Notes under the pieces: generated by a model | Seen by the model: the letters and a program-made list of their open reading frames with translations, nothing else | The model's database searches: none | Told to the model about the DNA's origin: nothing | Shown: one piece after another, positions 5,152 to 64,000 of the stretch | Layout: each line of letters begins with the position of its first letter | Numbering within the stretch: the stretch's first letter is position 1 | Made by a program: the position numbers and the translations under genes | Source: an uncultured bacterium | GTDB taxonomy: Bacteria > Auribacterota > Erginobacteria > Erginobacterales > CAZKCI01 | Length of the DNA: 64,000 bases | Direction of reading: 5' to 3' | Assembly (NCBI GenBank): GCA_964551475.1 | Contig: CAZKCI010000121.1 | Span: 14,308 to 78,307 of the forward strand

Positions 5152-5160
5152 GAGACCGGC

Positions 5161-5216
5161 GAGCGGTAAGCGGTAAACCGGAAGATTCAATTGCCCCGGT
5201 TTACAGTTTACCGCTC
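5161..5216 (+). terminator. Imperfect long hairpin immediately after the beta-propeller gene stop (gagcggtaagcggtaaaccgg ... ccggtttacagtttaccgctc)
   Basis: About 20-bp imperfect inverted repeat 10 nt after the stop codon; no clear U-tract. Confidence 0.3.
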
Positions 5217-5281
5217 ACGGCCGTCGGCTTTCCCAGTCTAACCCCTGGCCAATCCCGGGAGACTGCTGTATCCTGCCTGCC

Positions 5282-6818: not shown

Positions 6819-6821
6819 AAA

Positions 6822-6970
6822 GGTTATCAGGTTCAGCGGTTCAACGGTTCACGGTTCAACGGTTCGGCGGTTCAACGGTTCAGCGGTTCAGCGGTTCAAC
6901 GGTTCGGCGGTTCGGCGGTTCACGGTTATCGTCATCATTTTCAACCGTTGAACCGTGAACCCTTGAACCG
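6822..6970. repeat. Tandem array of about 12 GGTTCRRC octamers followed by an inverted copy (aaccgttgaaccgtgaacc), forming a long dyad; family A copy 1
   Basis: Direct reading of the sequence; the same architecture recurs at 57458-57600 and 63306-63384, and copies 1 and 3 both begin ggttatcaggttca. Confidence 0.9.
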
Positions 6971-7653: not shown

Positions 7654-8886
7654 TTGAACGATTTCAACGCCCTCAACGATTTGAACGATCCGACACCGAT
7701 CTGCCCCCATTTCGGGGAGTGCGGGGGATGCCGCTCACAGGATATCCCCTACCCTGACCAGCTTGCCGCCAAGGCTGCCCGACTGGAGGAGATCCGCGCC
7801 GCCCACGGCCTGCCGCCGGTCATCCTTCCCCCCGTCCCCTCCCCCGCCCTCTGGCATTACCGGAACAAGATGGAATTTTCCTTCGCGGAGAAGGACGGGG
7901 AGATCATCTGCGGACTTCACCACGCCCAGAGGAAAAAAGAGGTGGTGGATATATCCGAATGCCGCATCTTCTCCCCCGCCGCCGGACCCGTCCTCTCCGC
8001 GGTCAGGGATTTCGCCCGCCAAAGCGGCCTTCCCGCTTATAATCCCTATCGGCGGACCGGTTTTTGGAGAAACCTTGTCCTCCGGGAAGAAAAGAACGCG
8101 AAGGGATTCCTGGTCAACCTGATCACCACCTCACGGGGGGAACCGGACTGGGACGGACTGCGCGTTTCTCTCGCCGGCCTCACCACGGAGAAAAGCGTCT
8201 CCTCCCTGATCCGGACCGTCAACGACTCCGTCTCCGATGCGGTGATCCCGGAAAGGACGACCGTCCTCTCCGGCCCGGGCTATCTGGAGGAGACCGTCGG
8301 CGGATTCGCCTTCCGCATCCATCCCTTCTCTTTCTTCCAAACCAACGTCTTTCTTCTCCCCGAGTTTTACCGCCACCTCGCCGCCGCCGCCGCCCTCACC
8401 GCTTCCGAGAAGGCCCTCGATGTCTTCTGCGGAATGGGGCCGATCAGCCTGCTTCTGGCCCGACAGGCGAAAGAGGTCTTCGGGATCGAGCGGGAGGAGA
8501 CGACGGTCGAAAACGCCCGCCTCAACGCCCGTCTCAACCGGGTGGAGAACGCCGTCTTCATCTCCGGACCGGCCCGGAGGGTATTGGTTGATAACCGCGA
8601 CCGTTGGCGGGGTAGAATAGCCGCGGTGGTCGCCAACCCGCCCCGCAGCGGCATGGGAACGAAAGTCGCCCAACGCATCGCCGAGCTCGAAGCCGGCACT
8701 TTCATCTACTCTTCCTGCCGCCCGGAGTCCTTCTTCCCGGAAGCCGCCCTGTTTTTGAACGACTACGATCTGGAGTCGGTCCGGCCCTTCGATTTCTTCC
8801 CTCACACCCCCCACCTCGAGGTGGTCGGCGTCTTCCGGAGGAAGCAGCCGGGACGGTCGGCGGGGGCGGCGGCCGGCGAGCCATGA
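7654..8886 (+). CDS. 23S rRNA (uracil-5)-methyltransferase, RlmC/RlmD (RumB/RumA) family, without TRAM domain; true start possibly downstream of 7654
   Basis: C-x5-C-x2-C [4Fe-4S] motif (CPHFGECGGC); SAM-dependent MTase motifs (DVFCGMGPISL, ANPPRSG); the first about 13 codons (MNDFNALNDLNDP) are encoded by a short direct repeat. Confidence 0.8.
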   Translation: MNDFNALNDLNDPTPICPHFGECGGCRSQDIPYPDQLAAKAARLEEIRAAHGLPPVILPPVPSPALWHYRNKMEFSFAEKDGEIICGLHHAQRKKEVVDISECRIFSPAAGPVLSAVRDFARQSGLPAYNPYRRTGFWRNLVLREEKNAKGFLVNLITTSRGEPDWDGLRVSLAGLTTEKSVSSLIRTVNDSVSDAVIPERTTVLSGPGYLEETVGGFAFRIHPFSFFQTNVFLLPEFYRHLAAAAALTASEKALDVFCGMGPISLLLARQAKEVFGIEREETTVENARLNARLNRVENAVFISGPARRVLVDNRDRWRGRIAAVVANPPRSGMGTKVAQRIAELEAGTFIYSSCRPESFFPEAALFLNDYDLESVRPFDFFPHTPHLEVVGVFRRKQPGRSAGAAAGEP

Positions 8887-11744: not shown

Positions 11745-11757
11745 GATCTGAGATTTT
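11725..11757. repeat. Short GARATCT heptamer array (ctgaatctgaaatctgagatctgagatctgagattttt) forming the 3' end of the kinase gene and its T-run; family B
   Basis: The last 6 codons (NLKSEI) and the stop codon of the kinase lie inside the repeat. Confidence 0.8.
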
Positions 11758-13242: not shown

Positions 13243-13395
13243 GCGATCAGTAATCAGTGATCAGTGATTTCAACTTTCAGATTTGAGATCTCAGATTTGA
13301 GGTCTGAAATTTGAGATCTGAAATCTGAGATCTGAAATTTGAAATCTGAGATCTGAAATTTGAAATCTGAGATTTGAGATTTGAGATTCCGGATC
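13243..13395. repeat. Composite heptamer array: CAGTRAT units (13243-13275) then about 17 YTGARAT heptamers; families C and B
   Basis: Every unit falls on a strict 7-bp phase (ttcagat ttgagat ctcagat ttgaggt ctgaaat ...). Confidence 0.9.
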
Positions 13396-20935: not shown

Positions 20936-20939
20936 TGCG

Positions 20940-21010
20940 CAACGTATGACGTGCAACGTGTAACGTGCAACGGCCCTGACCGGCGATCCGTTCCACGTTA
21001 CACTTTACAC
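20940..21010. repeat. ACGTGYA heptamer array followed by its inverted copy (dyad) between the ferredoxin gene and mrpG-like gene; family H
   Basis: acgtatg acgtgca acgtgta acgtgca acgg ... ccgttccacgttacactttacacgtcacgcg. Confidence 0.8.
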
Positions 21011-21011
21011 G

Positions 21012-21341
21012 TCACGCGTTCTTATCCTTATGGTAATCGTCTCTCACGCTCCCCTTCCACAAACCCACGCCGGAGCGATGCGCCGCCCGGGCGATGGCAT
21101 GGGCGGCGACCGGCGAGGAGAGGAGCAGAAAAAGGATGCAGAGAAGGCATTTGATCCCGCCGGCGGTGAAGCCGAGCATGAGAAAAGTGCCGAAAAGGAT
21201 GGACGAGGTCCCCAGGGTCACGCACTTGGTGGAGGACTGGAGGCGGTTGTAGAGGTCGGGGAAACGGATCAACCCCAGGCACCCCACGAGGTCGAGAGCC
21301 AGTCCAAAAACCACGAAGACCATGCCGAGCGCGTCACTCAT
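21012..21341 (-). CDS. Mrp/Mnh antiporter subunit G-like (MbhC-like)
   Basis: Three-TM small subunit with the MnhG family pattern. Confidence 0.75.
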   Translation of the reverse strand: MSDALGMVFVVFGLALDLVGCLGLIRFPDLYNRLQSSTKCVTLGTSSILFGTFLMLGFTAGGIKCLLCILFLLLSSPVAAHAIARAAHRSGVGLWKGSVRDDYHKDKNA

Positions 21342-24049: not shown

Positions 24050-24094
24050 TGTGGTTATGCCTCAATCATGCCAGCAAACCGGCGGTCAGGCCGT

Positions 24095-24175
24095 CCATTG
24101 TAGGCCGGTTCTGTGAACCGGCGACCAGCCTCGCCGCCCGCTCACAGAGCGGGCCTACAGCCCGCACGACCGAGC
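24095..24175. repeat. GTAG-type REP pair (CTGTAGGCC plus hairpin, then an inverted copy) inside the hydrogenase operon; family E
   Basis: tgtaggccggttctgtgaaccggc ... gcccgctcacagagcgggcctacag; same family at 36538-36600 and 45514-45630. Confidence 0.85.
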
Positions 24176-24181
24176 TATCTC

Positions 24182-25176: not shown

Positions 25177-25215
25177 GGCGTCCGAATTATGCTAGTCCAC
25201 GTTTGCTAGTCGATT

Positions 25216-25335
25216 TTGTGGGAGCGACATTCTTGTCGCGATCCCGGCCAACATGGATCGGGGCAAGATGCCCCTCCCACAGTGACAATTTTTTCGCGCT
25301 TGTAAGTTCTAGTGTGGGAGCGGCGTCTGCCCCAT
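25216..25335. repeat. TGTGGGAGCG...CCTCCCACA palindromic element (one full plus one partial copy) inside the hydrogenase operon; family D
   Basis: Outer inverted termini tgtgggag/ctcccaca enclose GC-rich hairpins; recurs at 27216-27430, 48673-48782 and 53095-53300. Confidence 0.85.
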
Positions 25336-25383
25336 CCCGAAATCTTCTTCGGGACTCGCCGCGATCCAGTCCATCATGGCGCA

Positions 25384-27201: not shown

Positions 27202-27215
27202 AGAGCTATCGCATG

Positions 27216-27430
27216 GTTATATTGTGGGAGCGACATTCCTGCCTGCCCCGATAGTCCCGGCAGAAGTGCGGGACTATCGGGGCCGCGATCCGAGTCAACC
27301 TGGATCGGGGCAAGAATGCCCCTCCCACAATCACACTATCGATCGTGTCTATGTCATTTCTGTGGGAGCGGCGTCTCGCCGCGATCCCTGCCAGCCCGGA
27401 TCGGGCCGAGGACGGCCCTCCCACAAAATC
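27216..27430. repeat. Two family-D palindromic elements between the NuoL-like gene and the hydrogenase large-subunit gene
   Basis: tattgtgggagcgacattcctgcctgccccgatagtcccggcagaagtgcgggactatcgggg...cccctcccaca, plus a second copy at 27355-27425. Confidence 0.85.
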
Positions 27431-27435
27431 ATTCA

Positions 27436-31036: not shown

Positions 31037-31065
31037 GAGAGAGTCAGAGGCGTCCGAGATCCGGT

Positions 31066-31140
31066 GTAATGTGTAAGGTGTAATGTGTAATGAAAAACTG
31101 ACTGGCCATTATTACACCTTACACTTTCCACCTTACACCC
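31066..31140. repeat. GTGTAAK heptamer array with inverted partner (dyad) between the ferredoxin and HydG-like genes; family H variant
   Basis: gtgtaat gtgtaag gtgtaat gtgtaat g ... ttacaccttacactttccaccttacacc. Confidence 0.8.
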
Positions 31141-36435: not shown

Positions 36436-36537
36436 CGTGTCACCTCCCCGGGGTTGGTTTCGAGCCCGGCGTATTCGGTTTACTTTCACTTATTAAACTG
36501 GAATACTCGCGGAAGGTTTAACCGATCATGCCTCAGC

Positions 36538-36600
36538 GATGTAGGCCCGCTCTGTGAGCGGGCGTTTCGCCGCCGCCTCACAGAGGCGGCCTACACATAG
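36538..36600. repeat. GTAG-type REP pair (family E)
   Basis: tgtaggcccgctctgtgagcgggcg ... cgccgcctcacagaggcggcctaca. Confidence 0.85.
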
Positions 36601-36612
36601 GTTTTATCGATC

Positions 36613-37563: not shown

Positions 37564-38275
37564 CACAACCCCTTCGGGGTTGATGGCGGCATCGGCTCCC
37601 CCAACCCGGGGTAGCGCCTCCGGCGCAACCCCGGGCTATGCGATGGAATCCCGTTGGGATTCGGCCTCCGGCGACAATGCCAAAAGATCTGGATTGGGAA
37701 TCGATGCCGGAAAACGCTGTTCGACGACGGCTGGTCCCAACAAAATCATCTTCGATCACCCAGACGTCTTGCCCCTGTGAACGCCACTTTGAAAGTTATC
37801 TTCTTCACCCGGTTTGAAATCTCCCTTTCGGGCCGGCGGTCACATGCCCCAACGGGGCAACGTCCCCTAGCCCAGGGTTGCGCCGGAGGCGCTACCCTGG
37901 GTAAACGACACGCATCGCCAGGCCAACCCCAACGGGGTTGTGTCCCCTAGCCCAGGGTTGCGCCGGAGGCGCTACCCTGGGTAAACGGCGCGCAACGACA
38001 GGCCAACCCCAACGGGGTTGCATCCCCTAGCCCAGGGTTGCGCCGGAGGCGCTACCCTGGGTAAACGACACGCAGCGCCAGGCCAACCCCGACGGGGTTG
38101 CGTCCCCTAGCCCAGGGTTGCGCCGGAGGCGCTACCCTGGGTAAACGGCGCGCAACGACAGGCCAACCCCAACGGGGTTGTGTCCCCTAGCCCAGGGTTG
38201 CGCCGGAGGCGCTACCCTGGGTAAACGACACGCAACGACAACCAACCCCAACGGGGTTGCATCAAAGGAGAACGG
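37560..38275. repeat. REP array upstream of the RAYT: one inverted-orientation unit (37560-37690), a diverged spacer, then five tandem 80-bp structured units
   Basis: Unit cccctagcccagggttgcgccggaggcgctaccctgggtaaacgacacgcaacgacaggccaaccccaacggggttgcgt; contains nested hairpins and a GTAG (as CTAC) tetranucleotide. Confidence 0.9.
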
Positions 38276-38277
38276 CT

Positions 38278-38733
38278 ATGCCACAATCGTTGTCATGCGT
38301 CTACGTCCACCTGGTATTTTCGACGAAAAATCGGGTCCCTTTCATTCGGGAGATGGCGCTACGCGCGGAATTGCAGGCCTATCTGGGCGGGATTTCCAAG
38401 ACATTGGAATGCCCGCCAACCATTGTCGGCGGAACGGATGATCACGTACACATGTTGTGTCGTTTGGGGCGGACGATCGCGCAGGCGAATTGGGTCAAGG
38501 AGGTCAAGCGCGTGTCCAGCGCCTGGATCAAGCAACACGATCCGACGCTGGCGGATTTTGCCTGGCAGACCGGATATGGCGCGTTTTCGGTAAGCGTGTC
38601 AAATCTGGAAAAGGTCCAGGCATATATCTCCAACCAGGAAGAACATCATCGTCAACAATCCTTTCAGGACGAATACCGTGCGTTTCTGAAAAAACACGGC
38701 TTGGAATGCGATGAACGGTATATGTGGGATTGA
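38278..38733 (+). CDS. REP-associated tyrosine transposase (RAYT; IS200/IS605-like Y1 HUH transposase TnpA-REP)
   Basis: HUH motif DDHVHMLCRL, catalytic Tyr in AWQTGYGAFSVS, about 150 aa, flanked on both sides by REP arrays; AAAGGAGA RBS 6 nt before ATG 38278. Confidence 0.85.
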   Translation: MPQSLSCVYVHLVFSTKNRVPFIREMALRAELQAYLGGISKTLECPPTIVGGTDDHVHMLCRLGRTIAQANWVKEVKRVSSAWIKQHDPTLADFAWQTGYGAFSVSVSNLEKVQAYISNQEEHHRQQSFQDEYRAFLKKHGLECDERYMWD

Positions 38734-38739
38734 TAGGTG

Positions 38740-39430
38740 TTGACACAACCCCTTCGGGGTTGACGGGGATATTGCTCTCGTATACCCGGGGTAGCGCCTT
38801 CGGCGCAACCCCGGGCTACATGACAGAATCCCTTTGGGATTCGTCCCCCGCAATTGCCCAAAAGGGGCAATGTCCCCTGGCCAAGCATTGCGCCAAAATC
38901 GTCCGATGGAATCCTATTGGGTATTCGGCTCCTGCAACAACGCTGGGATGCCGAGTACGGAAACCTCACCTGCAACACCATCCCAAACAATATTGTGAGG
39001 CATTCGTTAACCCCAACGGGGTTGCGTCTCCTAGCCCAGGGTTGCGCCGAAGGCGCTACCCTGGGTAAACGACACGCAACGACAGGCCAACCCCAACAGG
39101 GTTGCGTCTCCTAGCCCAGGGTTGCGCCGGAGGCGCTACCCTGGGTAAACGGCGCGCAACGACAGGCCAACCCCAACGGGGTTGCGTCTCCTAGCCCAGG
39201 GTTGCGCCGAAGGCGCTACCCTGGGTTAACGACACGCAACGACAGGCCAACCCCAACGGGGTTGCGTCCCCTAGCCCAGGGTTGCGCCGAAGGCGCTACC
39301 CTGGGTAAACGGCGCGCAACGACAGGCCAACCCCAACGGGGTTGCGTCCCCTAGCCCAGGGTTGCGCCGAAGGCGCTACCCTGGGTTAACGACACGCAAC
39401 GACAGGCCAACCCCAACGGGGTTGCGTCCC
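38740..39430. repeat. REP array downstream of the RAYT: inverted-orientation unit (38740-38870), a diverged spacer, then five tandem 80-bp units
   Basis: Same unit as the upstream array; 38740-38870 and 37560-37690 share ttgacacaaccccttcggggttga...cccggggtagcgcc. Confidence 0.9.
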
Positions 39431-40529: not shown

Positions 40530-40554
40530 TCAGTAACTGATCACTGATAACTGA

Positions 40555-43630: not shown

Positions 43631-44353
43631 ATGAACGCGAACACCTACGCTGCTATCGGCGAATCCTTCCCTCCCCTCTCCTCACGGGAACCGGATGCCG
43701 CTTTCGTTGCCCGCTGGGAGAGGGAGAACGAGCGCCTGCGGGAGATCGTCCTGTCGGTCAAGGCCGCCGATGAAAAGGTCAAGGATGAGGTTTTGCGGGC
43801 GGGCCTGATGGACCCCCGAAATGCCGTCATCCGGGAGGAGATCAAGTCCTTCTGCGCCATCCCCTACCGGCGTCGGGAGGGACCGCTCGCCCCCTGCGAG
43901 GGAATCACCTACGGTTGGAAAGGCTGTCCACCCCATTCCCCTCCGGTCGCTGAAACCATCTCGCTCCTGCGCTCCGCCTCCGCCTTCCTCATCCTTCAAT
44001 TCAGCGGCCTCAAGCATCACTCCTTCCAGAAGCACATCCACGAGTTCACGCTCTCGCTGGAAGCGGTTCTCCGGGGAAAGGGATGGAAGGTTCTTCAGAG
44101 CTACAGCACCGGCCCCTGCCGTCTCTGCGCCAAGGGGTGCGCCGAAAGCGGGGACTGCCGTCAGCCTCAGAGGAGACGCTTCGCCCTGGAGTCCTGCGGT
44201 TTCTGGGTGAAGAGCCTCTGCCGGGCGGCCGCCCGCTTTCCCCTCTGCGGAGACGGGGAGTGGGAGATTGAGTGGATCCGGGACTGGAACCTGCCCTCCC
44301 AGTCCCCCCCTACCTACCGGGCGGTGACGGGGATACTGCTGGTACATGGGTGA
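43631..44353 (+). CDS. Cys-rich predicted metal-binding protein (DUF2284-like)
   Basis: Several Cys pairs (CEGITYGWKGC, CRLCAKGCAESGDC, CGFWVKSLC). Confidence 0.6.
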   Translation: MNANTYAAIGESFPPLSSREPDAAFVARWERENERLREIVLSVKAADEKVKDEVLRAGLMDPRNAVIREEIKSFCAIPYRRREGPLAPCEGITYGWKGCPPHSPPVAETISLLRSASAFLILQFSGLKHHSFQKHIHEFTLSLEAVLRGKGWKVLQSYSTGPCRLCAKGCAESGDCRQPQRRRFALESCGFWVKSLCRAAARFPLCGDGEWEIEWIRDWNLPSQSPPTYRAVTGILLVHG

Positions 44354-44651
44354 AGGTTAGGAAGTGGGTCTGGGGGATAGGTCAGGGTCAGGTTAGGCCA
44401 GACGGGCTACACTATTAACCTTACCCATTTACCAGACCATCATCCTTACCCTGACCCATCGACCCCGATGGCAAATGGGTAAGGGTCAGGAAGTGGGCCT
44501 GGGGGATGGGTCAGGGTCAGGTGGGGCCAGACGGGCTACACTATTAACCTTACCCATTTACCAGACCATCATCCTTACCCTGACCCATCGACCCCGATGG
44601 TACATGGGTAAGGGTCAGGAAGTGGGTCTGGGGGATGGGTCAGGTCGATGG
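44341..44651. repeat. About 129-bp structured tandem repeat, 2.4 copies, spanning the DUF2284 stop codon to the nfo stop codon
   Basis: Copies start at 44341, 44469 and 44599; each unit holds internal inverted segments (aaatgggtaagggtcagg... versus ...ccttaccctgacccat). Confidence 0.9.
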
Positions 44652-45494: not shown

Positions 45495-45513
45495 GGCAAG
45501 ATAATTCCGCGGG

Positions 45514-45630
45514 CTGTAGGCCCGTTCTGCGAACGGGCGGCCGGGCTCGAACGCCGGTTCACAGAACCGGCCTACAGTCTCTGACGAAGCGTCCGCCCGC
45601 GGTCGGTAGGCCCGCTCTGCGAGCGGGCGT
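45514..45630. repeat. Three GTAG-type REP units in alternating orientation (family E) between nfo and the aminotransferase gene
   Basis: ctgtaggcccgttctgcgaacgggcgg / gccggttcacagaaccggcctacag / ggtaggcccgctctgcgagcgggcg. Confidence 0.85.
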
Positions 45631-45654
45631 GTGCGGGCCTTGGCTGCCGCTTAT

Positions 45655-48664: not shown

Positions 48665-48672
48665 TCGTTCGA

Positions 48673-48782
48673 TGGTGGGAGCGACATTCTTGCCTGCCCC
48701 GATAGTCCCGGCAGAAGTGCGGGACTATCGGGGTCGCGATCCGAGTCAACCTGGATCGGGGCGAGACGCCCCTCCCACATAT
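48673..48782. repeat. Family-D palindromic element (tattgtgggagcgacattcttgcctgccccgatagtcccgg...cccctcccacatatgg)
   Basis: Near-identical to the 27216-27330 copy. Confidence 0.85.
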
Positions 48783-49864: not shown

Positions 49865-49960
49865 AAAGTATGAAAACAGTCGTAAGTTATAAGTTGTAAG
49901 GAAACAGCCGATCGCCAGGAGAAAGCGCGCTTATAACTTACAACCTACAACTGTTTCTTC

Positions 49961-52837: not shown

Positions 52838-53094
52838 GCTCCCTGTGATTGGTGTCTGATCAAGGTGGTATATTAACAGCGAACGCCCTTCTGTCAAGCC
52901 GGATTATGGCCGATTATGGCCGAGAATCCTAAGCTTCCCGTCGTAATCCGGCGTTTGTTCCGTTGCGGGCGCCTCCTGCTTCCGGAATCTATCGCACCAG
53001 GGCAGCCTGCTCCTGATTCGCGGGTATGTTCATTCCCGCGAATTAGTCACTTTCCCGACCACATACACGCTTCTGCGTGTATGTTGTTATGTCC

Positions 53095-53300
53095 TATTGT
53101 GGGAGCGGCGTCTCGCCGCGATCCGAGCCAACAGGATCGGGCCGGGGACGGCCCTCCCACATTGACAACTTTTATGCGCGTGTAAGATCCTATTGTGGGA
53201 GCGGCGTCTCGCCGCGATCCGGGCCAACAGGATCGGGGCCCCGATCTTGATATGCATCTAATCGTAATCGGGGCAGGCAGGAATGCCCCTCCCACAATAA
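53095..53300. repeat. Three family-D palindromic element copies upstream of the rplU operon and downstream of rng
   Basis: tattgtgggagcggcgtctcgccgcgatcc...ccctcccaca, three times. Confidence 0.85.
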
Positions 53301-53368
53301 TATATTTCCAGCTTTCTTCGTGCCTTGGTGCCTTTGTGGCATAATTGGGTTGCGGGCGTCAGCCGGCC

Positions 53369-55655: not shown

Positions 55656-57466
55656 GCGACCGTCTCCCCGGCTTTCCGCGCTTCCTCGATCAGCGTCGCT
55701 TTATCGACTCCCCCGCCGATATGGTCCCAGGGAAGCGTGTCCTCTCGACCATAGGGCGGACGAAGATAGAACTCGGGCGCGAGACCGGCTTTGGAAAAAG
55801 CCCGCTCCCACCGTTCGCTGGACAGATGCTCCTCCCACTCGTCAAACCGGCATCCCTCTTCGTGGGCGGCCAGGAGGATCCCTCCGACCCGGCGGTCCCC
55901 CCGGGAGATCACGCCCTCGATCAAACTCGTCTCCAGCGAACGGAACTTGAGCCTCACCCGCCGGGAGCGCACGCCGGAGCGGAGCACGGCCTGGGCCGAC
56001 CGGATCTCCTCCCGAGCGGCCATGGGCGCCCACTGGAACGGAGTGGCCGGCTTGGGGACGAAGGTGGAGATCGTGACGTTGGTCTCCCCTCCCCAGCGGG
56101 AGAGGCGGTTGATCATTTCGACGATGGCCTCCACGTCCTCCCTGGTCTCCCCCGGAAGGCCGACCATGAAATAGAGCTTCATCAGACGCCAGCCCATGGC
56201 CTTGAGCTTCTGGCTCAGATCCCAGAGGCGCTGCGGGTCGCAGGATTTTCCGATCGCCCGCTGGAGGCGGGGGCTGGCGGCCTCGGGGGCGAGCGTGATC
56301 CCGCTCTTGCTCACCCGCTTGCTCTCCAGAAGCATCGCCTCCGTGACCGAGGCGATGTTGAGCGAAGGCAGGGAGAGTCCGATCCGCCGTCGGGCCAGAA
56401 CGGGGGAAAGCTCCTCCATCACCGCGGCGATCTCGGGGTGGTCGCCGCTGGAGAGCGAGAGGAGCGAGACCTCTCCCCGGCCGCTCCTCTCGGCGAGCGC
56501 CAGCGCCTGGCGGACCGTCTCCTCCTTCGACTTGCGCCGCACCGGGCGGGAGGTCCAGCCGGCGGCGCAGAAACGGCAGCCGCGGGCGCAGCCGCGCATG
56601 ATCTCGACCGCGGAACGGTCGTGTGTGACCTCGGTCAGGGGGACCAGCGGGGCCGCTATTTGAGATCGGTTCAGGTCGGCAAAAACGCGCTTCTCGATCC
56701 GGGAGGGGATGCCGTCCCCGATCGGACTGATCCCCGTGAACTTCCCGGCCGAATCGTAGGCGGGCCGGTAGAGCGCAGGCGCATACAGCCCCGGAACCCG
56801 GTTCACCATGCGCCGGAGAAGCTCCAGCTTCCCCTCCTCTCTTCTCTCCTGTCGGAGCGAAGCGGAGATCCCGATCGGCGCCACTGGCGATGATCGGGAC
56901 CCTTCCTGCCTTTCTTTTTGATATGCCTCCATTATCTCGACGATGGCTTCCTCGCCGTCCCCGATGAGAAAGAGATCGAAGAAATCCGCCAGCGGCTCGG
57001 GGTTATAGGCGCCGATCCCTCCCCCCAGAACGAGCGGATAACCAGGATGGGCGCGGCGGGAGGCCAGGAGGGGAAGGCCGGCCAGCGAAAGCATGGCCAG
57101 GATATTGGTGTAGGTGAGCTCGGACTGGAGGGAAAATCCCCAGAGATCGAACTCCCGGGCCGGGCGGCGGGATTCCAGCGAGAAGAGGGGGATACCCTTC
57201 GCCTTCATCCTCTCCTCCATGTCGGGCCAGACCGCGAAAGCCCGTTCCGCCGCGAACCGTCCGTCCCGGTTCACGATGTCATAGAGGATCTGCAGGCCGA
57301 GATGGCTCATCCCCAGCTCGTAGACATCCGGATAGCTGAAGAGAATCCGCGCCTCCGCCCGGGGGCGGACGGACGCATTGATCTCCCCCCCGATATAGCG
57401 GGCGGGCTTCTGGACGAAGGGGAGGACCTCCTCTTCCAGAACGCGGATTATGTTCAGAGGGTTCAA
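55652..57466 (-). CDS. TIGR03960-family B12-binding-domain radical SAM protein; TTG start embedded in the family-A repeat
   Basis: Radical SAM CxxxCxxC (CARGCRFCAAG), N-terminal B12-binding-like region; no in-frame ATG near the N-terminus, TTG at 57466. Confidence 0.8.
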   Translation of the reverse strand: MNPLNIIRVLEEEVLPFVQKPARYIGGEINASVRPRAEARILFSYPDVYELGMSHLGLQILYDIVNRDGRFAAERAFAVWPDMEERMKAKGIPLFSLESRRPAREFDLWGFSLQSELTYTNILAMLSLAGLPLLASRRAHPGYPLVLGGGIGAYNPEPLADFFDLFLIGDGEEAIVEIMEAYQKERQEGSRSSPVAPIGISASLRQERREEGKLELLRRMVNRVPGLYAPALYRPAYDSAGKFTGISPIGDGIPSRIEKRVFADLNRSQIAAPLVPLTEVTHDRSAVEIMRGCARGCRFCAAGWTSRPVRRKSKEETVRQALALAERSGRGEVSLLSLSSGDHPEIAAVMEELSPVLARRRIGLSLPSLNIASVTEAMLLESKRVSKSGITLAPEAASPRLQRAIGKSCDPQRLWDLSQKLKAMGWRLMKLYFMVGLPGETREDVEAIVEMINRLSRWGGETNVTISTFVPKPATPFQWAPMAAREEIRSAQAVLRSGVRSRRVRLKFRSLETSLIEGVISRGDRRVGGILLAAHEEGCRFDEWEEHLSSERWERAFSKAGLAPEFYLRPPYGREDTLPWDHIGGGVDKATLIEEARKAGETVA

Positions 57467-57600
57467 CGGTTCAGCGGTTCAACGGTTCAGCGGTTCAACG
57501 GTTCAGCGGTTCAACGGTTCAGCGGTTCAACGGTTCAGCGGTTCAGCGGTTCAGCGGTTCAACGGTTTAAAGGCAACCGTGAACCTTGAACCGTGAACCC
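57458..57600. repeat. Family-A GGTTCRRC octamer array (about 13 units) plus inverted arm
   Basis: ggttcaacggttcagcgg... then aaccgtgaaccttgaaccgtgaacc. Confidence 0.9.
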
Positions 57601-57636
57601 CAACAACCGCACCCCCATCGTCTTCCAACCAAATGT

Positions 57637-58737
57637 TTAATACCAGAATCGTCGGATATAGACGCTCTGGCAGATCCCCATCAGGGAGAGCATCGTGACG
57701 GTGATGGAACCCCCGTAGCTCAGGAAAGGCAACGGCAGTCCGGTGGCTGGGAGGAGCCCCATCACCATCCCCACGTTGATCAGGACATGGCTGGAGAAGA
57801 CCAGGATGCAGCCTGCGACCAGGAGTTTCCCGATGAAATCACGGGAAGCGCGGGCGATCCGGTAGAGTCGGAAAACCACGAGCGCGTAGAGCCCGAGAAC
57901 CGCGAGCGAACCCGCCGCGCCCGATTCCTCCGCCACCACCGAGAAGATGAAGTCGGTCTGGCGCTCGGGAAGAAAACTGAGCATGTTCTGCGTCCCCTGC
58001 ATCCGGCCTTTTCCCCAGATCCCCCCCGATCCGATCGCGATCTTGGACTGGATCACCGTGTATCCCGCCCCCAGCGGATCGCGGGTGGGGTCCAGGAAGA
58101 CCAGGAGACGGTTCTTCTGATAATCCTTGAGGAAAATCCAGAACCCCGGAGATATCACGGCGAAGAGCAGAGCCAGGATGACCAGGTGCTTGATGCGCGC
58201 CCCGGCGATAAAGACCATCCCGATGGTCAGGGGGATGAGCAGAAGCGCCGTCCCCAGATCCGGCTGTTTCAGGATCAGGACCGCCGGGAAGGCGGCCAGC
58301 AGGCAGGGGACAAGGATGAACTTCCAGCGGAGGCGCTGGGCGGAGGCGGAGGAGAGATAGCGGGAGAGGGCCAGGACCAGGGCGAGCTTGGCGAACTCGG
58401 AGGGCTGGACGGTGAAGGCCCCCAGCTGAATCCAGCGCCGGGCGCCGAAACGGATCTCTCCCAGGACCGCGATCAGCAGGAGCAGGGCGAAGACCGCGCC
58501 GTAGATGATGAAGGACGCGGACGCGAGCCGCCGATAGTCGATGAGAGTAAAAAGCATGAACAGGCATCCCCCGATGGCCAGCCAGGTGAGCTGGCGCTGG
58601 GCAAAGTTCACTCCGCTGGTCTGCCGGAGCTGGAAGGAGGCGCTGTCGATGAAGAAGAGGCCGATCGTCGCCAGCGCGAGGAGCGCGGCGATCAGCCACC
58701 AGTCCAAGTATTTCAGCAATCGAAACATATCACTCAT
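57637..58737 (-). CDS. rodA: Rod shape-determining protein RodA (SEDS family peptidoglycan glycosyltransferase)
   Basis: Ten-TM FtsW/RodA/SpoVE pattern. Confidence 0.9.
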   Translation of the reverse strand: MSDMFRLLKYLDWWLIAALLALATIGLFFIDSASFQLRQTSGVNFAQRQLTWLAIGGCLFMLFTLIDYRRLASASFIIYGAVFALLLLIAVLGEIRFGARRWIQLGAFTVQPSEFAKLALVLALSRYLSSASAQRLRWKFILVPCLLAAFPAVLILKQPDLGTALLLIPLTIGMVFIAGARIKHLVILALLFAVISPGFWIFLKDYQKNRLLVFLDPTRDPLGAGYTVIQSKIAIGSGGIWGKGRMQGTQNMLSFLPERQTDFIFSVVAEESGAAGSLAVLGLYALVVFRLYRIARASRDFIGKLLVAGCILVFSSHVLINVGMVMGLLPATGLPLPFLSYGGSITVTMLSLMGICQSVYIRRFWY

Positions 58738-60484
58738 AGTACTTCCGGAAAAACTCCCCCGCGGCCGGCGCGGCTATTTCGCCTCCCGATCCCGGCTCCT
58801 CCAGGATCAGGGCGAGGACCAGCGGCCTTTCCCCGGCGGGGACCAGGGCCAGGAACCAGGCCTGCGTGTCATACTCGGGCGCCACTCCCACCTGCACCGT
58901 CCCCGTCTTCCCGTAGACCGTGACCCGGGGATGGGCGGCCAGCATCCCCGTTCCCCCCTCCTCGTTGACCACCCGGTACATCCCATTCCAGATATCGTCC
59001 CACTGGCGCTCGGGGAGACGAATCTCCCTCCGGATCACCGGGGGAAATTCCTGGATCGTCTCCCCCTTGGAGTTGGTGATCCGCGTCGCCAGGCGGGGCT
59101 GGAAAACCTTGCCCCGGCTGGCGATCAGGCATCCCATCGAGGCCATCTGGAGGGGCGTCACCCGGATATACCCCTGGCCGATGGAGAGGTTGGCCGTATC
59201 CCCCGGATACCATCCCTCGCGCAGCGTCGACTTCTTCCACTGGCGGCTGGGGACGAATCCCGCCTTCTCTCCCACCAGTCCGATCCCCGTCTTTTCCCCG
59301 AACCCCGCCAGCAAGGCCGCTTCCCGGATGCGGTCGAGACCGAGGTCGAGGCCGAGGCGGTAGAAAAATACGTTGCACGAGTTTTTGATCCCCTCCCGGA
59401 GAGCCAGGGGGCCATGGCCGCCCTCTTTCCAGCAGCGGAAGACGGTCGATCCGAGAGAGATCGATCCGGCGCAGTCCGTCGTCGCTTCCGGGTTGAGCTT
59501 GCCCGAACGGAAGCCCGCCAGCGTCACCACCAACTTGAAGGGCGAGCCCGGAGGATATTCCCCGCCCAGGGCCCGGTTCAGGATCGGGGAATCGGGGTGG
59601 GAGAATATCTCCTGGAGATACTCCTCGTCCACCGGACGGGTGAGCAGGTTGGGATCGAAGGACGGTTTGCTGACCAGCGCCAGCAGGTCGCCGTTCCTGG
59701 GATCGAGCGCGACCGCCGCCCCTTTTCGGCCCTCCAGAATTCCGTCCAGGATCGTCTGGGCCCGCAGATCCACCGTCAGATACAGGTTGTTCCCGGGCTG
59801 GGGGTCCCGGCCGGCCAGGACCCGGTCCCGGTAGCCGCGGGCATTGACCTGGATCTGCTCGCCCCCACCCACGCCTCGGAGGAACAGGTCGAAGGACTGC
59901 TCCACGCCGATCTTGCCGATGTCGTCCTGCGATCCGTAGCCAAGATCGCCCAGCCGTTCCAGCTCACGCCCTTCGATCTGACCGACATAGCCGATCAGGT
60001 GAACGAAGGCGGGGCCGTAGGGGTAGTTGCGCACCGGATTCACCCGAACCTCCACGCCTTCCCATTCCGGGCTCCTCTCCTCGAACACCGTGGCCCGGGC
60101 GATCCCGATGTCGGTGGCCAGACGGACCGGCTCGAACGGTTTCTGGCGGAAACGGTTGAGCCGGGTCCGGATCCGCTCCGGCTCGATCTCCAGGACCTCG
60201 CTCAGGCGGGCGATCAGCTTGTCCTGGTCTTTCACCTCGCTCAGGTTGACCAGGGTTTCGAAACCGGGGCGATTGTCGGCGAGAATCTTTCCGTCCCGGT
60301 CGAAGATCGATCCCCGGGGGGCGGGGATGGTCACCAGACGAATGCGGTTGCCTTCGGCCAGACGCTCGTATTCGTCCCCCCGGATCACCTGGATATACCA
60401 GAGAACGGAGGCCAGTGCGCCGGCGGCGACGGCGAGAAGGGTGACGAGAACGGCGAGGCGAAGGTCGGTCCGGGGAAGGTCCAT
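58730..60484 (-). CDS. mrdA: Penicillin-binding protein 2 (elongasome transpeptidase)
   Basis: N-terminal anchor, dimerisation domain, transpeptidase SxxK/SxN/KTG motifs. Confidence 0.9.
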   Translation of the reverse strand: MDLPRTDLRLAVLVTLLAVAAGALASVLWYIQVIRGDEYERLAEGNRIRLVTIPAPRGSIFDRDGKILADNRPGFETLVNLSEVKDQDKLIARLSEVLEIEPERIRTRLNRFRQKPFEPVRLATDIGIARATVFEERSPEWEGVEVRVNPVRNYPYGPAFVHLIGYVGQIEGRELERLGDLGYGSQDDIGKIGVEQSFDLFLRGVGGGEQIQVNARGYRDRVLAGRDPQPGNNLYLTVDLRAQTILDGILEGRKGAAVALDPRNGDLLALVSKPSFDPNLLTRPVDEEYLQEIFSHPDSPILNRALGGEYPPGSPFKLVVTLAGFRSGKLNPEATTDCAGSISLGSTVFRCWKEGGHGPLALREGIKNSCNVFFYRLGLDLGLDRIREAALLAGFGEKTGIGLVGEKAGFVPSRQWKKSTLREGWYPGDTANLSIGQGYIRVTPLQMASMGCLIASRGKVFQPRLATRITNSKGETIQEFPPVIRREIRLPERQWDDIWNGMYRVVNEEGGTGMLAAHPRVTVYGKTGTVQVGVAPEYDTQAWFLALVPAGERPLVLALILEEPGSGGEIAAPAAGEFFRKYYE

Positions 60485-60625
60485 GAGAGATAATCTCAGA
60501 TTTCAGATCTCAGATATCGGATCGCGAATCTCGGATTCGGGATTTCGGATCGTGGATCCCGGTTTGAAATCTCAAATCCCAGCTATCAAATCTCAAATCT
60601 GAAATCTGAGATCTCAAATCCTCCG
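60481..60625. repeat. About 20-unit heptamer array whose first half (tYtcRga) is the reverse complement of its second half (ctSaaat), forming a giant dyad between mrdA and mreD; family B
   Basis: tctcaga tttcaga tctcaga ... ttgaaat ctcaaat ... ctgaaat ctgagat ctcaaat, every unit on a 7-bp phase. Confidence 0.9.
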
Positions 60626-60638
60626 GGCGGCGGCCGTT

Positions 60639-61175
60639 TCATTCGGGAAATACTTTCTCGCAGACCCACCAGACCAGGGGTGAGACAAGCAAAGTCTGCC
60701 AGAGACCCGGCCAGACCGTCTCCTTGAGGGCCCAACCCACGCTCGGCTGGATCCGGTACACGCAGAGCAGAAGGTAATAGACGGCGGCGCCGACGAGCGA
60801 GGCGATCGCGATCATCAGCGCTTTCGTGCCGAAATGGCCGGCACGGAGGGACCGGCAGAGCCGGACCGCTACCCGCGCTCCGGCCGCCAGGGAGAGAGGA
60901 CCCAGGCCGAGACGGCCGGCGGAGAAGATATCGCTGAGGAGCCCCCCCAGAAGGGCCGCCAGCCAGCCCTCGGCCGGGGAACGCGCCGCGTTCCGGAAAA
61001 CAACCAGGATCAGCACCAGGTCGGGGCGGAACCACCCTACCCCCAGCGCCGAGGACAGTCCGCTCTGGAGAAGAACCGCCCCCAGAAGAAGCAGGAAGAG
61101 CAGTCCCCGCTCCCGGTAGGCGCGGGCGCGGAAGGAGGCGGCCAGGACGATCGGACGGCGGACGGCGACGCTCAT
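60639..61175 (-). CDS. mreD: Rod shape-determining protein MreD
   Basis: Small polytopic membrane protein immediately downstream of mreC. Confidence 0.7.
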   Translation of the reverse strand: MSVAVRRPIVLAASFRARAYRERGLLFLLLLGAVLLQSGLSSALGVGWFRPDLVLILVVFRNAARSPAEGWLAALLGGLLSDIFSAGRLGLGPLSLAAGARVAVRLCRSLRAGHFGTKALMIAIASLVGAAVYYLLLCVYRIQPSVGWALKETVWPGLWQTLLVSPLVWWVCEKVFPE

Positions 61176-61963
61176 GGCTGGGAACGCTCGATCACCATCA
61201 CCTGGTCCAGCCGGTCGAAGTCGGCCGCCGGCTCCACGTCCGCGTACTGGTAGAGACCGAATTTCTCGGAATAGACTTTCGTGATCCGTCCGATCGGAAG
61301 GCCGGGGGGATAGAGCTGTCCCAGGCCGGAGGTGACCACCAGCTCATCGAGGGCGATCTCCTGGCGGCGGGGCAGATAATTGATCACCAGCGTGGAGGCG
61401 GAGACCCCCTGGACGATCCCCCCCAGCCGGGAGGACTGCAGGACCCCCCCCACCCGGCTGTTCCCGTCGATCAGGAGCAGAACGCGGCTGGAGTGGGGCG
61501 AGACCTCGATCACCTTCCCGACCACTCCCCGCGGGGAGACCACCGCGGCGTCCTTCTTGACCCCGTCCGCCGCTCCCTTGTCGATCACCACGCTCTGATA
61601 CCAGTTGTGCACGTCCCGGCCGATGACCAGGGCGGCCACTCCGCTCCAGGACTCCCGCTCCCGGAAGGCGAGCAGTGAGCGCATGGTCTCGTTCTCCCTC
61701 TCGACCTCCTGGAGGCGGGAGAGGTCCCGTTCCAGGGCGGCCACCTTCTCTTCCAGAAGGCGGTTTTCCGTTCCCGCCCGAAGCACCCTCCCGACCCCGG
61801 TCGCCCCCTTCCCCAGGAAGGAGAGGAAACGGCTGGAAACGGTCTGGGCGGGGGAGAAAATCTCCAGGAGACGGCTTTTGACGGACTCCGAGGAGGAGGA
61901 GGAGAGGCTCAGAAGCGCGATCAGGGAGAGGATGATCGCGGTGGCAACGAGCGGTCTGCTCAT
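61172..61963 (-). CDS. mreC: Rod shape-determining protein MreC
   Basis: N-terminal TM helix, coiled coil (LERDLSRLQEVERENETMRSLLAF), C-terminal beta domains. Confidence 0.85.
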   Translation of the reverse strand: MSRPLVATAIILSLIALLSLSSSSSESVKSRLLEIFSPAQTVSSRFLSFLGKGATGVGRVLRAGTENRLLEEKVAALERDLSRLQEVERENETMRSLLAFRERESWSGVAALVIGRDVHNWYQSVVIDKGAADGVKKDAAVVSPRGVVGKVIEVSPHSSRVLLLIDGNSRVGGVLQSSRLGGIVQGVSASTLVINYLPRRQEIALDELVVTSGLGQLYPPGLPIGRITKVYSEKFGLYQYADVEPAADFDRLDQVMVIERSQP

Positions 61964-61967
61964 TTTA

Positions 61968-62009
61968 TTCCGAAATATGTCCTGCCGATCGGCAGGACAT
62001 ATTTCGGAA
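61968..62009. promoter_or_regulatory. 42-bp perfect palindrome (ttccgaaatatgtcctgccga|tcggcaggacatatttcggaa) ending 4 nt upstream of the mreC start codon
   Basis: Exact dyad symmetry on direct reading; centre cgatcg. Confidence 0.5.
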
Positions 62010-62097
62010 AAAATATAGCCTGCCGACGCGCGCGAGGTGAGGAGAAGAGGGCCTCTTCCGCAATCCCGGTTCCGATCGTGCGCTCAAACATAAATTC

Positions 62098-62134
62098 CAG
62101 GGGGGCTGACGGCAAATCCGTCAGCCCCCCTGGG
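62098..62134 (-). terminator. Perfect 16-bp GC-rich hairpin (ccaggggggctgacgg caaat ccgtcagcccccctgg) 3 nt after the mreB stop, followed on the minus strand by AAUUUAUGUUUG
   Basis: Canonical intrinsic-terminator geometry on the transcribed strand. Confidence 0.55.
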
Positions 62135-62136
62135 AT

Positions 62137-63183
62137 TTATTGGACATCGGTGGAACGCTCCGAGACCACGATCCGGCGGAGGAAACGAAGCTCCTCCAGG
62201 ACCTTGCCGGTGCCCAGGGCCACCGCGCTGATCGGGTCGTCCGCGACCTGAACCGGCAGGCCGGTCTCTTCGGCCAGCAGCTTGTCGATGCCGCGCAGGA
62301 GCGACCCTCCTCCGGCCAGGATCATGCCCCGGTCGACCAGGTCCGCCGAGAGCTCCGGCGGGCAGCGCTCCAGGCTAATCCTCACCGCTTCCACGATGGT
62401 GGAGATGGGCTCGGCCATGGCCTCGCGGATCTCCTCGGAGCTGACGGTCATGGTCTTGGGCAGTCCCGCCACCAGGTCGCGCCCCTTGACATCCATGGTC
62501 AGCTCCTGCTCCAGGGGATAGGCCGAGCCGATGTTGATCTTGATCATCTCGGAGGTCCGGGGGCCGATCAGGAGGTTGTAGGTGCGCTTCAGGTACTGGA
62601 TGATCGCCTCGTCCAGCTCGTCCCCCCCCACCCGCACGGAGCGGGAGAAGACGATCCCGGCCAGGGAGATGATGGCGACCTCCGAGGTGCCGCCGCCGAT
62701 GTCCACGATCATGTTCCCGGCCGCCTCCTGCACGGGCAGCCCCACGCCGATCGCCGCCGCCATCGGCTCCTCGATCAGATAGACCTCGCGGGCGCCGGCG
62801 TGCTCGGCCGAGTCCTTGACCGCGCGCTTCTCCACCTCGGTGATCCCGGAGGGGATGGCCACCACGATCCGGGGGCGCACCAGCGCCTTGCGGTTGTGGA
62901 CCTTGGTGATGAAGTAGCGGAGCATCGATTCGGTGATCTCGAAATCGGCGATCACGCCGTCCTTGAGCGGACGGATGGCGACGATGTTCCCCGGCGTCCT
63001 CCCCAGCATGTTCTTCGCCTCCTCTCCCACCGCGAGGACGTTGCTGGTCCCCTTCTGGATCGCCACCACCGAAGGCTCGTTGAGAACGATGCCGCGGCCT
63101 TTGACGAAGACCAGGGTGGTGGCGGTCCCCAGGTCGATCCCCATGTCCGAGGAGAACATCCCTAGGATGCGGTCGAAAAACAT
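62137..63183 (-). CDS. mreB: Rod shape-determining protein MreB (actin homolog)
   Basis: N-terminus [27 protein letters not shown] parallels E. coli MreB; actin-fold phosphate motifs. Confidence 0.95.
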
Positions 63184-63305
63184 ATCTTCCTCCTGAAAGG
63201 TCGGTGCGAGCGAATAGTCGTATTCCGGGCGCCCTTCTCCGGGCGCAGGGTGTTTTTAACCATATAGCAAACTCCCTTGGGCCGCAAGCACTTCTTCGTA
63301 ACTCA

Positions 63306-63384
63306 GGTTATCAGGTTCACGGTTCAGAGGTTCACGGTTCAGGGGTTCACGGTTTTCCCCCCCCAACCGTTGAACCCTTGAACC
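63306..63384. repeat. Family-A GGTTCA-core array plus inverted arm (copy 3)
   Basis: ggttatcaggttcacggttcagaggttcacggttcaggggttcacgg ... aaccgttgaacccttgaacc. Confidence 0.85.
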
Positions 63385-63387
63385 AGT

Positions 63388-64000
63388 TTATAGCAGGTAC
63401 TCCTTCACCTTCTCCCGCCACCGCTCCTCCATCATCACTTCGACATAGACGTCGTTTTGATGGTAGTCGATCTTCGCCACCGTCCCCTTCTGGTGGACCC
63501 AGGCGATCAGGTCCGGCCGCCCCTGGGGGATGAGCAGCCGCAGGAGCCGCCGGGAGGCGGCCAGCTCCCGGTCGATCCGGGCGAGCAGACCGTCGAGACC
63601 GGCGCCGGTCAGGGCGGAGACGGCCACCGAATCCGGCAGGCGCGCCGCGAGCTCGGCGAGACGGGAAGGATCGGCGACCAGGTCGGCCTTGTTGAGGACG
63701 GGGATGACCGGCGTGCGTCCGATCTTCAGTTCCCCGAGCACCTTCTCCACCGCCGCGTCCTGCTCGCGGAGGAGTCGGTGGGAAGCGTCCATCACCTTGA
63801 GGAGAATGTCCGCCTCCGCGACCTCCTCCAGCGTGGCCCGGAAAGATTCCACCAGGTGATGGGGAAGCTTCTTGATGAAGCCCACGGTGTCGGAGAAGAG
63901 AACGTTGAGCCCGCTGGGGAGACGGGCCCGGCGGGTGGTCGGGTCGAGCGTGGCAAAGAGCTTGTCTTCGACTTTTGCCTGCGCCCCGGTCAGGGCGTTC
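63388..64000 (-). CDS. hflX: GTPase HflX, C-terminal part (gene continues beyond window end)
   Basis: G-domain motifs and HflX C-terminal pattern (…TVGFIKKLPHHLVESFRATLEE…NKADL…). Confidence 0.85.
   Translation of the reverse strand, partial: NALTGAQAKVEDKLFATLDPTTRRARLPSGLNVLFSDTVGFIKKLPHHLVESFRATLEEVAEADILLKVMDASHRLLREQDAAVEKVLGELKIGRTPVIPVLNKADLVADPSRLAELAARLPDSVAVSALTGAGLDGLLARIDRELAASRRLLRLLIPQGRPDLIAWVHQKGTVAKIDYHQNDVYVEVMMEERWREKVKEYLL

Follow-up and report, generated by a model that had tools for sequence, protein, structure and literature searches.

The spacer between the cell-shape genes mreD and mrdA in a 64,000-nt stretch of DNA from an uncultured Auribacterota bacterium (contig CAZKCI010000121.1, positions 14,308–78,307; called the window here) is filled for the most part by 7-nt units in two opposed arms. 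This element is very probably an inverted pair of heptanucleotide simple sequence repeat (SSR) arrays, or a "tandem-repeat hairpin", with slippage dynamics. It belongs to a lineage-wide population of intergenic repeat hairpins, and the kind is already known from other bacteria. The two genes at its borders are as follows.

58730–60484, minus strand: mrdA (PBP2), with PBP_dimer and Transpeptidase domains; start codon at 60482–60484.
60639–61175, minus strand: mreD (Pfam MreD); stop codon at 60639–60641.

The spacer is thus 154 nt long (60485–60638). Upstream of it lie mreC, mreB, and hflX, and downstream lies rodA. The window has a GC content of 64% and is about 89% coding, according to a crude gene call based on GC at third codon positions.

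Eighteen heptamers are found at 60493–60621, as ten units, a 3-nt junction, and eight units. Two types of units are seen: ATCTCRG (ten times) and [CG]ARATCT (eight times). The parts of the array are as follows.

60493–60562, minus strand: mrdA-proximal arm, ten heptamers of the YYGARAT type on the sense (minus) strand, ending 8 nt before the mrdA ATG. Units on the plus strand: ATCTCAG ATTTCAG ATCTCAG ATATCGG ATCGCGA ATCTCGG ATTCGGG ATTTCGG ATCGTGG ATCCCGG.
60563–60565: TTT junction, with a 3-nt shift of the heptad phase; the apex of the dyad is approximately here.
60566–60621, minus strand: mreD-proximal arm, eight heptamers, a mixture of units complementary to the other arm and same-sense variants. 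Units on the plus strand: GAAATCT CAAATCC CAGCTAT CAAATCT CAAATCT GAAATCT GAGATCT CAAATCC.

Tandem Repeats Finder (TRF) reports two arrays in the spacer, 60493–60562 (period 7, 10 copies) and 60567–60620 (period 7, 7.7 copies). The autocorrelation of the spacer is 0.61, 0.55, and 0.52 at lags 7, 14, and 21, against about 0.25 at other lags. The signal at lag 7 (z = 10 relative to mononucleotide shuffles) is matched within the window only by the array around 13.3 kb. The units are degenerate (72–74% match), and the core GAT/ATC is nearly invariant among them. The array is a long SSR in the sense of a head-to-tail unit of 5–11 nt repeated beyond chance. The first-pass annotation described the sequence from the mrdA start codon to just before the mreD stop codon as built entirely of about 20 heptamers in strict phase. 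The parsed count is lower, 18. About 130 of the 154 nt are indeed periodic, and the ends, 8 nt at the mrdA ATG and 17 nt at the mreD stop, are not. The strict phase holds inside each arm and is broken at the centre. GATC, the Dam site, is enriched in the array as a result of how the unit is composed, and most other unit families lack this enrichment. Regarding GC skew relative to array orientation or replication direction, 64 kb yields no usable signal.

The two arms form a dyad, whose best inverted repeat is composed of the following halves.

60493–60515: left half, 23 nt, 91% complementary; outer stem of the predicted hairpin.
60590–60612: right half, pairing with 60493–60515.

Alternative registers of the inverted repeat in the spacer are displaced by 7 nt. 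The two or three outer units are near-perfect complements, and the pairing of the inner units is imperfect and includes G-U pairs and mismatches. The proposal that the first nine or so units are the reverse complement of the last eight or so can be kept for the outer units but not for the inner ones. The minimum free energy (MFE) of the 176-nt region is −64.3 kcal/mol on the sense (minus) strand (z = −3.7) and −61.9 kcal/mol on the plus strand (z = −2.8), where the z-scores are from dinucleotide shuffles. Because the unit core AGATCT is palindromic, any array of this type is partly self-complementary, and therefore the order of the units was shuffled as a control. The 18 units in their native order reach −49.3 (plus) and −52.3 (minus) kcal/mol, against means of −30.9 and −35.7 for the shuffles. 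None or one of 500 shuffles folds as well as the native order (z = −3.2 to −3.8). This indicates that the dyad exceeds a by-product of the near-palindromic core. The expectation that the region is able to form a single long, imperfect hairpin is thereby supported.

The unit is also present elsewhere in the window. When up to one mismatch is allowed, the di-unit pattern YTGARATYTGARAT is seen 29 times, against 0.18 expected, and all 29 matches fall at 11727–11754, 13267–13387, and 60493–60619. Two sister arrays correspond to these matches.

13246–13388: about 20 heptamers, ATCAGTR units followed by TGARATY units; in the spacer between two minus-strand genes.
11724–11754: CTGARAT, 4.4 copies; between convergent genes.

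The array at 13246–13388 has a higher-order period of 21 nt and folds into two hairpins. The first-pass annotation regarded the heptamer as the builder of two more arrays and as a dispersed family rather than a local one-off event. Both statements agree with the present data, since three loci of the window share the unit. The array at 11724–11754 overlaps the last codons of a PAS/histidine-kinase/receiver gene (8883–11744) and supplies its TGA stop codon. Owing to the period of 7 nt, three CTGARAT units put TGA in every reading frame.

At least nine repeat hairpins with units of 7–8 nt are present in the window, and their units differ. They share an architecture: n tandem units, a short loop, and tandem reverse-complement units. 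At least eight unrelated 7- or 8-nt units take this form within 64 kb. The dyads other than those described above are as follows.

5154–5225: AGCGGTA, 2 copies / TTACMGY (TTACCGC), 2 copies; directly after a stop codon.
6830–6970: GGTTCARC / AACCGTTG; after floA.
20939–21020: ACGTGYA, 3.4 copies / TTACACG-type, 3 copies.
31064–31139: GTGTAAK, 4 copies / TTACACY, 4 copies.
49874–49955: AGTTRTA, 3 copies / TTAYAAC, 3 copies.
57460–57599: GGTTCARC, 13.5 copies, loop, AACCGTG, 3.6 copies; after rodA.
63305–63384: GGTTCAC / AACCSTTG; after hflX; a member of the GGTTCA family.

Three of them (6830–6970, 57460–57599, and 63305–63384) constitute the GGTTCARC / GTTGAACC family. On the better-folding strand, the dyads in this list have fold z-scores from −3.5 to −7.4. 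Unpaired direct arrays, of CCATTCA, ACGTGCC, and TNACTGA, are also seen. Among the 13 tracts of period 7 or 8, 12 are mostly or partly in the non-coding 11% of the window, and the remaining one is inside a predicted open reading frame (ORF) near its 5′ end. The tracts are thus concentrated in non-coding DNA, as SSRs are when the unit is not a multiple of 3. The predicted starts of several genes, taken from the longest ORF (57466, 20956, and 13241), fall inside arrays and are probably wrong (57466 is a TTG, in the radical-SAM gene).

Based on PBP2, the closest relative in a species-level genome collection is L001, a metagenome-assembled genome (MAG), with 86% identity; the next is 56% identical. 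About 36 PBP2 sequences from a protein database form a clade at 53–88% identity, followed by a gap to about 42%. One member of the clade is labelled Candidatus Erginobacter occultus, of the phylum Ca. Auribacterota in the PVC group. Judged by this one marker protein, the bacterium of the window probably belongs to Ca. Auribacterota as well. The gene order hflX-mreB-mreC-mreD-mrdA-rodA-radical SAM-DUF2344-RNase E/G-L21-L27-obg is conserved in the clade. The mreD-mrdA spacer is not conserved, and is 34, 154, 265, 287, or 485 nt long. Other dyads are found in the mreD-mrdA spacer of relatives, CAAATC/GATTTG in L085 and ATCAGG/CCTGAT in L088, and the mreC-mreD spacer of L087 contains a CCTAAAT/ATTTAGG dyad.

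The density of the repeats was compared between seven clade loci and 76 loci of other phyla, with one TRF setting for all. The clade loci contain 3–6 arrays per 10 kb, about 8–15 times the density of other phyla. The values per 100 kb are as follows.

Period-7 arrays: 11.8 in the clade loci, 1.5 in the 76 loci of other phyla.
Period-8 arrays: 5.0 in the clade loci, 0.34 in the 76 loci of other phyla.

A report on genomes of Ca. Auribacterota (PMC9324843) does not mention repeats.

In L001, L209, and L210–214, mrdA has a gene other than mreD upstream, one with weak matches to Pfam NAD_synthase and Asn_synthase. A YYGARAT tract on the sense strand immediately ahead of the mrdA ATG is nevertheless seen in all of them. 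As the tract is kept at mrdA despite the different upstream gene, either the proximal arm travels with mrdA or the arrays mark breakpoints of rearrangements. The upstream region in L001 and L209 also holds a CbiMQ-type ABC transporter cluster, with the heptamer tract at the junction, a possible repeat-associated synteny breakpoint. In another locus, L002, composite blocks of 6–9-nt tandem repeats (CTACATGTC, CGAGTA, TAATCTGTG, and others) are present at 1726–1942 and 8855–9019. These blocks, about 7 kb apart, are mutually reverse-complementary (arms of 50–76 nt, 83–90%) and bracket the mre-mrd region.

The hairpin after rodA (57460–57599) is orthologous to a hairpin in L001, L209, and L210. 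The numbers of units in its two arms are about 4 and 3 in L001 and L209, 6 and 6 in L210–213, and 3.5 and 14 in the window. The copy number of whole units has changed in both arms. This fits the earlier suggestion of a structural element prone to replication slippage. Between the window and the species with 86% identical PBP2, the loop, GGTTGC(C)TTT(A/C)AACC, and the loop-proximal stem match at about 19 of 20 positions, against 62% identity at third codon positions of conserved residues of mrdA in the same comparison. The homologue of the mreD-mrdA array in L001 and L210 differs by substitutions and length, and the contigs are incomplete there. In L213, L001, and L209, the mrdA stop codon is directly followed by a 110-nt GTGTCAG/CTGACAC hairpin, which is absent in L210 and L214. 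L213 and L210 encode identical PBP2, yet differ in this hairpin (1813–1952 of L213 versus 1813–1842 of L210; also 7756–7895 of L001).

Metagenome contigs of JGI were scanned for three YTGARAT units. At least 120 stretches matched, a raw count close to chance for a terabase-scale database, and 80 loci, with GC contents from 31% to 65%, were examined. At least four units are seen at 63 of these loci, and at least five at 32; because of the extension to four or more units in the 63, the matches can be counted as arrays. An inverted partner lies within 250 nt at five of the 80 loci, always in the order ATYTCAR...YTGARAT, as in the window. Judging from these matches, the YTGARAT unit and its dyad form are widespread in environmental bacteria.

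Heptamer arrays are the commonest long simple repeats in bacteria, and their function is almost unstudied. Among the long simple repeats of prokaryotes, heptanucleotides are described as the most abundant class, and polymerase slippage is the proposed origin (PMC4679880, PMC4692102). A close likeness to the element is found in Xanthomonas, where a genome has about 180 GGGAATC arrays, with 70–75 cases of convergent pairs that could fold into stem-loops (Rehm et al. 2015, PMC4692102). These arrays are mostly transcribed, and their length varies between species while the type is preserved (PMC4692102). Both cases have intergenic tandem heptamers in a GC-rich genome, opposed arrays of the same unit, and a length varying between relatives, here in sister elements (PMC4692102). 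The arrays at 60493–60562 and 60566–60621 likewise carry one unit on opposite strands at a short distance. In contrast to that of Xanthomonas, this unit (ATCTCAG/CTGAGAT) is A/T-rich and lacks G-quadruplex potential: neither the G-rich GGGNATC nor regular G3 tracts are seen in ATCTCRG or [CG]ARATCT. Besides, many unit families including 8-mers are present here versus one in Xanthomonas, and the lineage here is an uncultured PVC phylum.

Another likeness is the array (ATCTTTC)n upstream of hmw1A in Haemophilus influenzae. It is transcribed, and makes up one of the arms of a long hairpin in the 5′ untranslated region (PMC12721329). The hmw1 hairpin is cut by RNase III, and a higher repeat number leads to lower expression (PMC12721329). 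For hmw1, it is suggested that the change of repeat number needs RNase III and transcription (PMC12721329). A heptanucleotide SSR immediately upstream of a gene, as an arm of a long hairpin, is common to hmw1 (PMC12721329) and the mreD-mrdA spacer, where the hairpin is predicted. The second arm is a non-repetitive G-rich tract in hmw1, whereas it is an array, like the first, here. The gene there encodes a phase-variable adhesin of a pathogen, and the gene here, inside an operon, a housekeeping PBP2. The combination of heptad periodicity and dyad symmetry, regarded in the first-pass annotation as foreign to the classical repeat elements known to it, is thus represented in the inverted pairs of Xanthomonas (PMC4692102) and in the heptamer arm of hmw1 (PMC12721329).

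The heptamers of Calothrix and other cyanobacteria (Mrazek et al. 2007; PMC4679880, PMC4692102) are similar in being dispersed, mostly intergenic, and of several unit families per genome, and in changing by increments of 7 nt between strains. For the most part they are described as direct arrays, with paired inverted arrays rare in Nostoc (PMC4692102), in contrast to the window. In Beggiatoaceae, cyanobacteria, and Bacteroidetes, TAACTGA repeats are seen a short distance upstream of start codons (PMC4679880). Like these, the mreD-mrdA spacer has UGA-containing heptamers on the sense strand a few nt from a start codon and lacks a canonical ribosome-binding site. However, the unit here is CTGARAT and not TAACTGA, the arrays are longer, and an inverted partner arm is present. 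Heptamers of the types TAACTGA, TCACTGA, and TTACTGA do exist in the window, at 40530–40554 and 13246–13268. The latter, on the sense strand, immediately precede the predicted start of a GHL15-family gene. What stands out in the present case is the unusual density of the arrays and their hairpin arrangement in a phylum of which little is known, also within the conserved mre-mrd operon for cell shape.

As a whole, the facts could best be explained by a slippage-driven repeat hairpin that is co-transcribed in the mre-mrd operon and damps or processes the expression of mrdA-rodA; this full account is about evenly balanced between right and wrong. The arrays would grow and shrink by slipped-strand mispairing. 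The arms would be kept roughly matched, with the hairpin either selected for or party to its own generation. As the genes are co-directional in a cluster syntenic across the clade and no promoter- or terminator-like site is seen, the spacer is probably in the mre-mrd message. This RNA would contain an imperfect hairpin of about 130 nt, with a near-perfect outer stem of about 16–23 bp ending 8 nt before the mrdA AUG. By analogy with hmw1, the hairpin might block the initiation of translation, act as a substrate of RNase III, or both. The expression of PBP2-RodA would then be lowered or uncoupled relative to MreBCD, with a strength set by the number of units. The regulatory role of the mreD-mrdA hairpin, taken by itself and drawn from this analogy, is less likely than not. 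If hairpins do tune expression or move, they would be a natural system of repeat number, RNA structure, and gene dosage within operons.

A scan of 57300–63500 for promoters and terminators found neither a sigma-70-like promoter nor a terminator-like site within the mreD-mrdA spacer. No canonical Shine-Dalgarno (SD) sequence is present between the heptamer array and the mrdA ATG; a canonical SD is seen in only 20 of the 59 genes of the window. An SD-like GGAGGA follows the mreD stop codon on the sense strand, at the 5′ foot of the hairpin, and is paired in the MFE structure with the pyrimidine tract before the mrdA AUG. It is a speculation that the folding brings GGAGGA next to the AUG as a "split ribosome-binding site". 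A search of the whole window against Rfam at the gathering score gave no matches, and that of the spacer (E ≤ 10) gave only sub-threshold matches to hairpins like miRNA precursors.

Several facts weigh against a slippage-driven hairpin with a function in the operon. Co-transcription and the hairpin in vivo are derived from gene context and from prediction. The sister elements are polymorphic as wholes between strains, which disagrees with a required function. The three assemblies that contain the mreD-mrdA array represent one strain, and the array shows no copy-number variation there. One member of the clade, L086, has a mreD-mrdA spacer of 34 nt with no array, and the element is thus dispensable for the operon. 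The hairpin at mreD-mrdA folds about equally well on both strands, and over nine dyads the sense strand folds better in five, the antisense strand in three, with one tie. Without a strand bias in folding, there is no signature of selection on RNA rather than DNA.

The alternative closest to this account is that the hairpins are a neutral or selfish mutational by-product, accumulated by slippage where spacers tolerate them and of no use to the mre-mrd operon. It is a possibility to be taken seriously, albeit a minority one. Turnover is high, as units, lengths, and positions differ among relatives, whole elements are present or absent between near-identical strains, and arms can be very unequal, such as 13.5 versus 3.6 units; the arrayless 34-nt spacer and the folding without strand bias also agree with it. 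On the other hand, matched inverted arms recur with many unrelated units and are usually similar in length. Both arms grew in L210 relative to L001, where slippage in one arm predicts otherwise. The loop and the loop-proximal stem after rodA are better conserved (about 19 of 20 positions) than synonymous sites (62%), and so stable a stem 8 nt from a start codon is unlikely to have no effect.

It can be speculated beyond these accounts that the dyads are a self-propagating class of hairpins in Ca. Auribacterota. They would be inserted at gene boundaries, their arms would expand together in a manner dependent on the hairpin or the transcript, as suggested for hmw1, and their copy number would be a heritable intercistronic rheostat, including that of the elongasome operon. 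This is improbable.

At a similarly low probability, the hairpins could be non-autonomous mobile elements of the type of a MITE (a miniature transposable element with inverted repeats) or a repetitive extragenic palindromic (REP) sequence. A transposase, such as one of the Y1/HUH type, would copy the hairpins, and slippage would resize them afterwards; this proposal is compatible with the slippage-driven hairpin. The discrete 110-nt dyad present or absent after mrdA between strains with identical PBP2 is as expected for an insertion. No target-site duplication is found for this indel, the only clean one seen, however; the terminal inverted match is only 5 nt, and the indel could equally be a hairpin-mediated deletion. 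The GGTTCA dyads at 63305–63384 and at 6821, 56 kb apart, have an identical degenerate edge of 15 nt, AGGTTATCAGGTTCA, which occurs twice against 0.01 expected. The shared edge points to the copying of whole putative elements and not to independent origins. The same unit families are present at several loci and in different genomes. On the other side, the copies differ widely in length, which with the absence of a target-site duplication is unlike MITEs. The window also encodes a Y1_Tnp protein similar to RAYT, but its gene is flanked by a different repeat, of 80 bp. REP sequences and their bacterial interspersed mosaic elements (BIMEs), associated with RAYT (PMC3333891, PMC3116915), resemble the dyads as abundant intergenic hairpin-forming repeats, often within operons. 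A REP stem is, in contrast, a single palindrome of 20–40 nt that has a conserved GTAG head and lacks an internal period of 7 nt. The mreD-mrdA array lacks the GTAG head, as do the heptamer dyads in general, and its stem is A/U-rich and periodic.

Less likely again is a role in transcription, as an attenuator or terminator between mreBCD and mrdA-rodA. In its favour are the length and stability of the predicted hairpin, and the several sister dyads that follow directly after stop codons, at 5152, 6819, 57455, and 63300. The scan did not flag the spacer, though; the stem is followed by UAUCUCUCAUG and not by a U-tract, and it is rich in A-U and G-U pairs instead of G-C pairs. No promoter-like site was found in the scan that could restart the transcription of mrdA. 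The genome does contain a canonical terminator-like hairpin after mreB, which shows what such sites look like there. It is a strong one at 62097–62133 on the minus strand, with 16 pairs (13 G-C), 4 nt past the mreB stop codon, and suggests attenuation between mreB and mreC.

An array of binding sites for a sequence-specific DNA- or RNA-binding protein that reads the heptad register is quite improbable. Such a protein was proposed in the first-pass annotation. In Nostoc, heptamer repeats near start codons affect the expression of recF and recO (bioRxiv 10.1101/2022.06.06.494920), and for the heptamers of Nostoc and Beggiatoaceae a role as protein-binding sites has been proposed (bioRxiv 10.1101/2022.06.06.494920; PMC4679880). 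The near invariance of the GAT/ATC core and the YTGARAT arrays in many unrelated metagenome contigs could be understood in this way. Against it, the units of the mreD-mrdA array are degenerate. Moreover, at least eight unrelated units with periods of both 7 and 8 nt share one architecture in 64 kb, and relatives have further units, so that many proteins would be required.

The concern that the array is an assembly artefact, a collapsed or chimeric repeat, is essentially refuted for the mreD-mrdA locus, where the spacer is base-for-base identical in JGI sample 3300036982 (a contig of 94.8 kb) and in two Logan assemblies, each of another run (SRR11848694 and SRR12667042), the degeneracy of the array makes its assembly unambiguous, and other genomes contain homologous tracts. 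Contigs from short reads often break inside arrays, and those of L083, L084, and L210–214 all end in arrays. For this reason, the copy numbers of long near-perfect arrays, such as 57460–57567, are less certain and could be mis-estimated. In practice, the arrays break short-read assemblies and can distort the calling of start codons in MAGs of this lineage.

Repeats of other types are also present in the window. The Y1_Tnp/IS200-like protein (158 aa, 38257–38733; Pfam PF01797, E = 4e-22) is in a block at 37847–39428. Its gene is flanked by arrays of an 80-bp hairpin unit in the same orientation, at 37847–38260 and 39009–39428, with 5.2 copies each. The block resembles a RAYT gene accompanied by REP arrays of the BIME kind. 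Hairpins similar to REP, with GTAG as their head (TGTAGGCCCGCTCTGTGAGCGGGC and variants) and often arranged as inverted pairs, are seen at 24050–24181, 36490–36612, and 45495–45654, and at 13350–13497 of L001. They are a family separate from the heptamer dyads. A hairpin element of 80–100 nt, TGTGGGAGCG...GCGATCC...GGATCGGGGC...CCCTCCCACA, is found at 25177–25383, 27202–27435, 48665–48760, and 52898–53368, and represents a third dispersed family of intergenic repeats. Finally, a 129-bp tandem repeat (44346–44644; 2.3 copies, 94% identity) lies between convergent genes.

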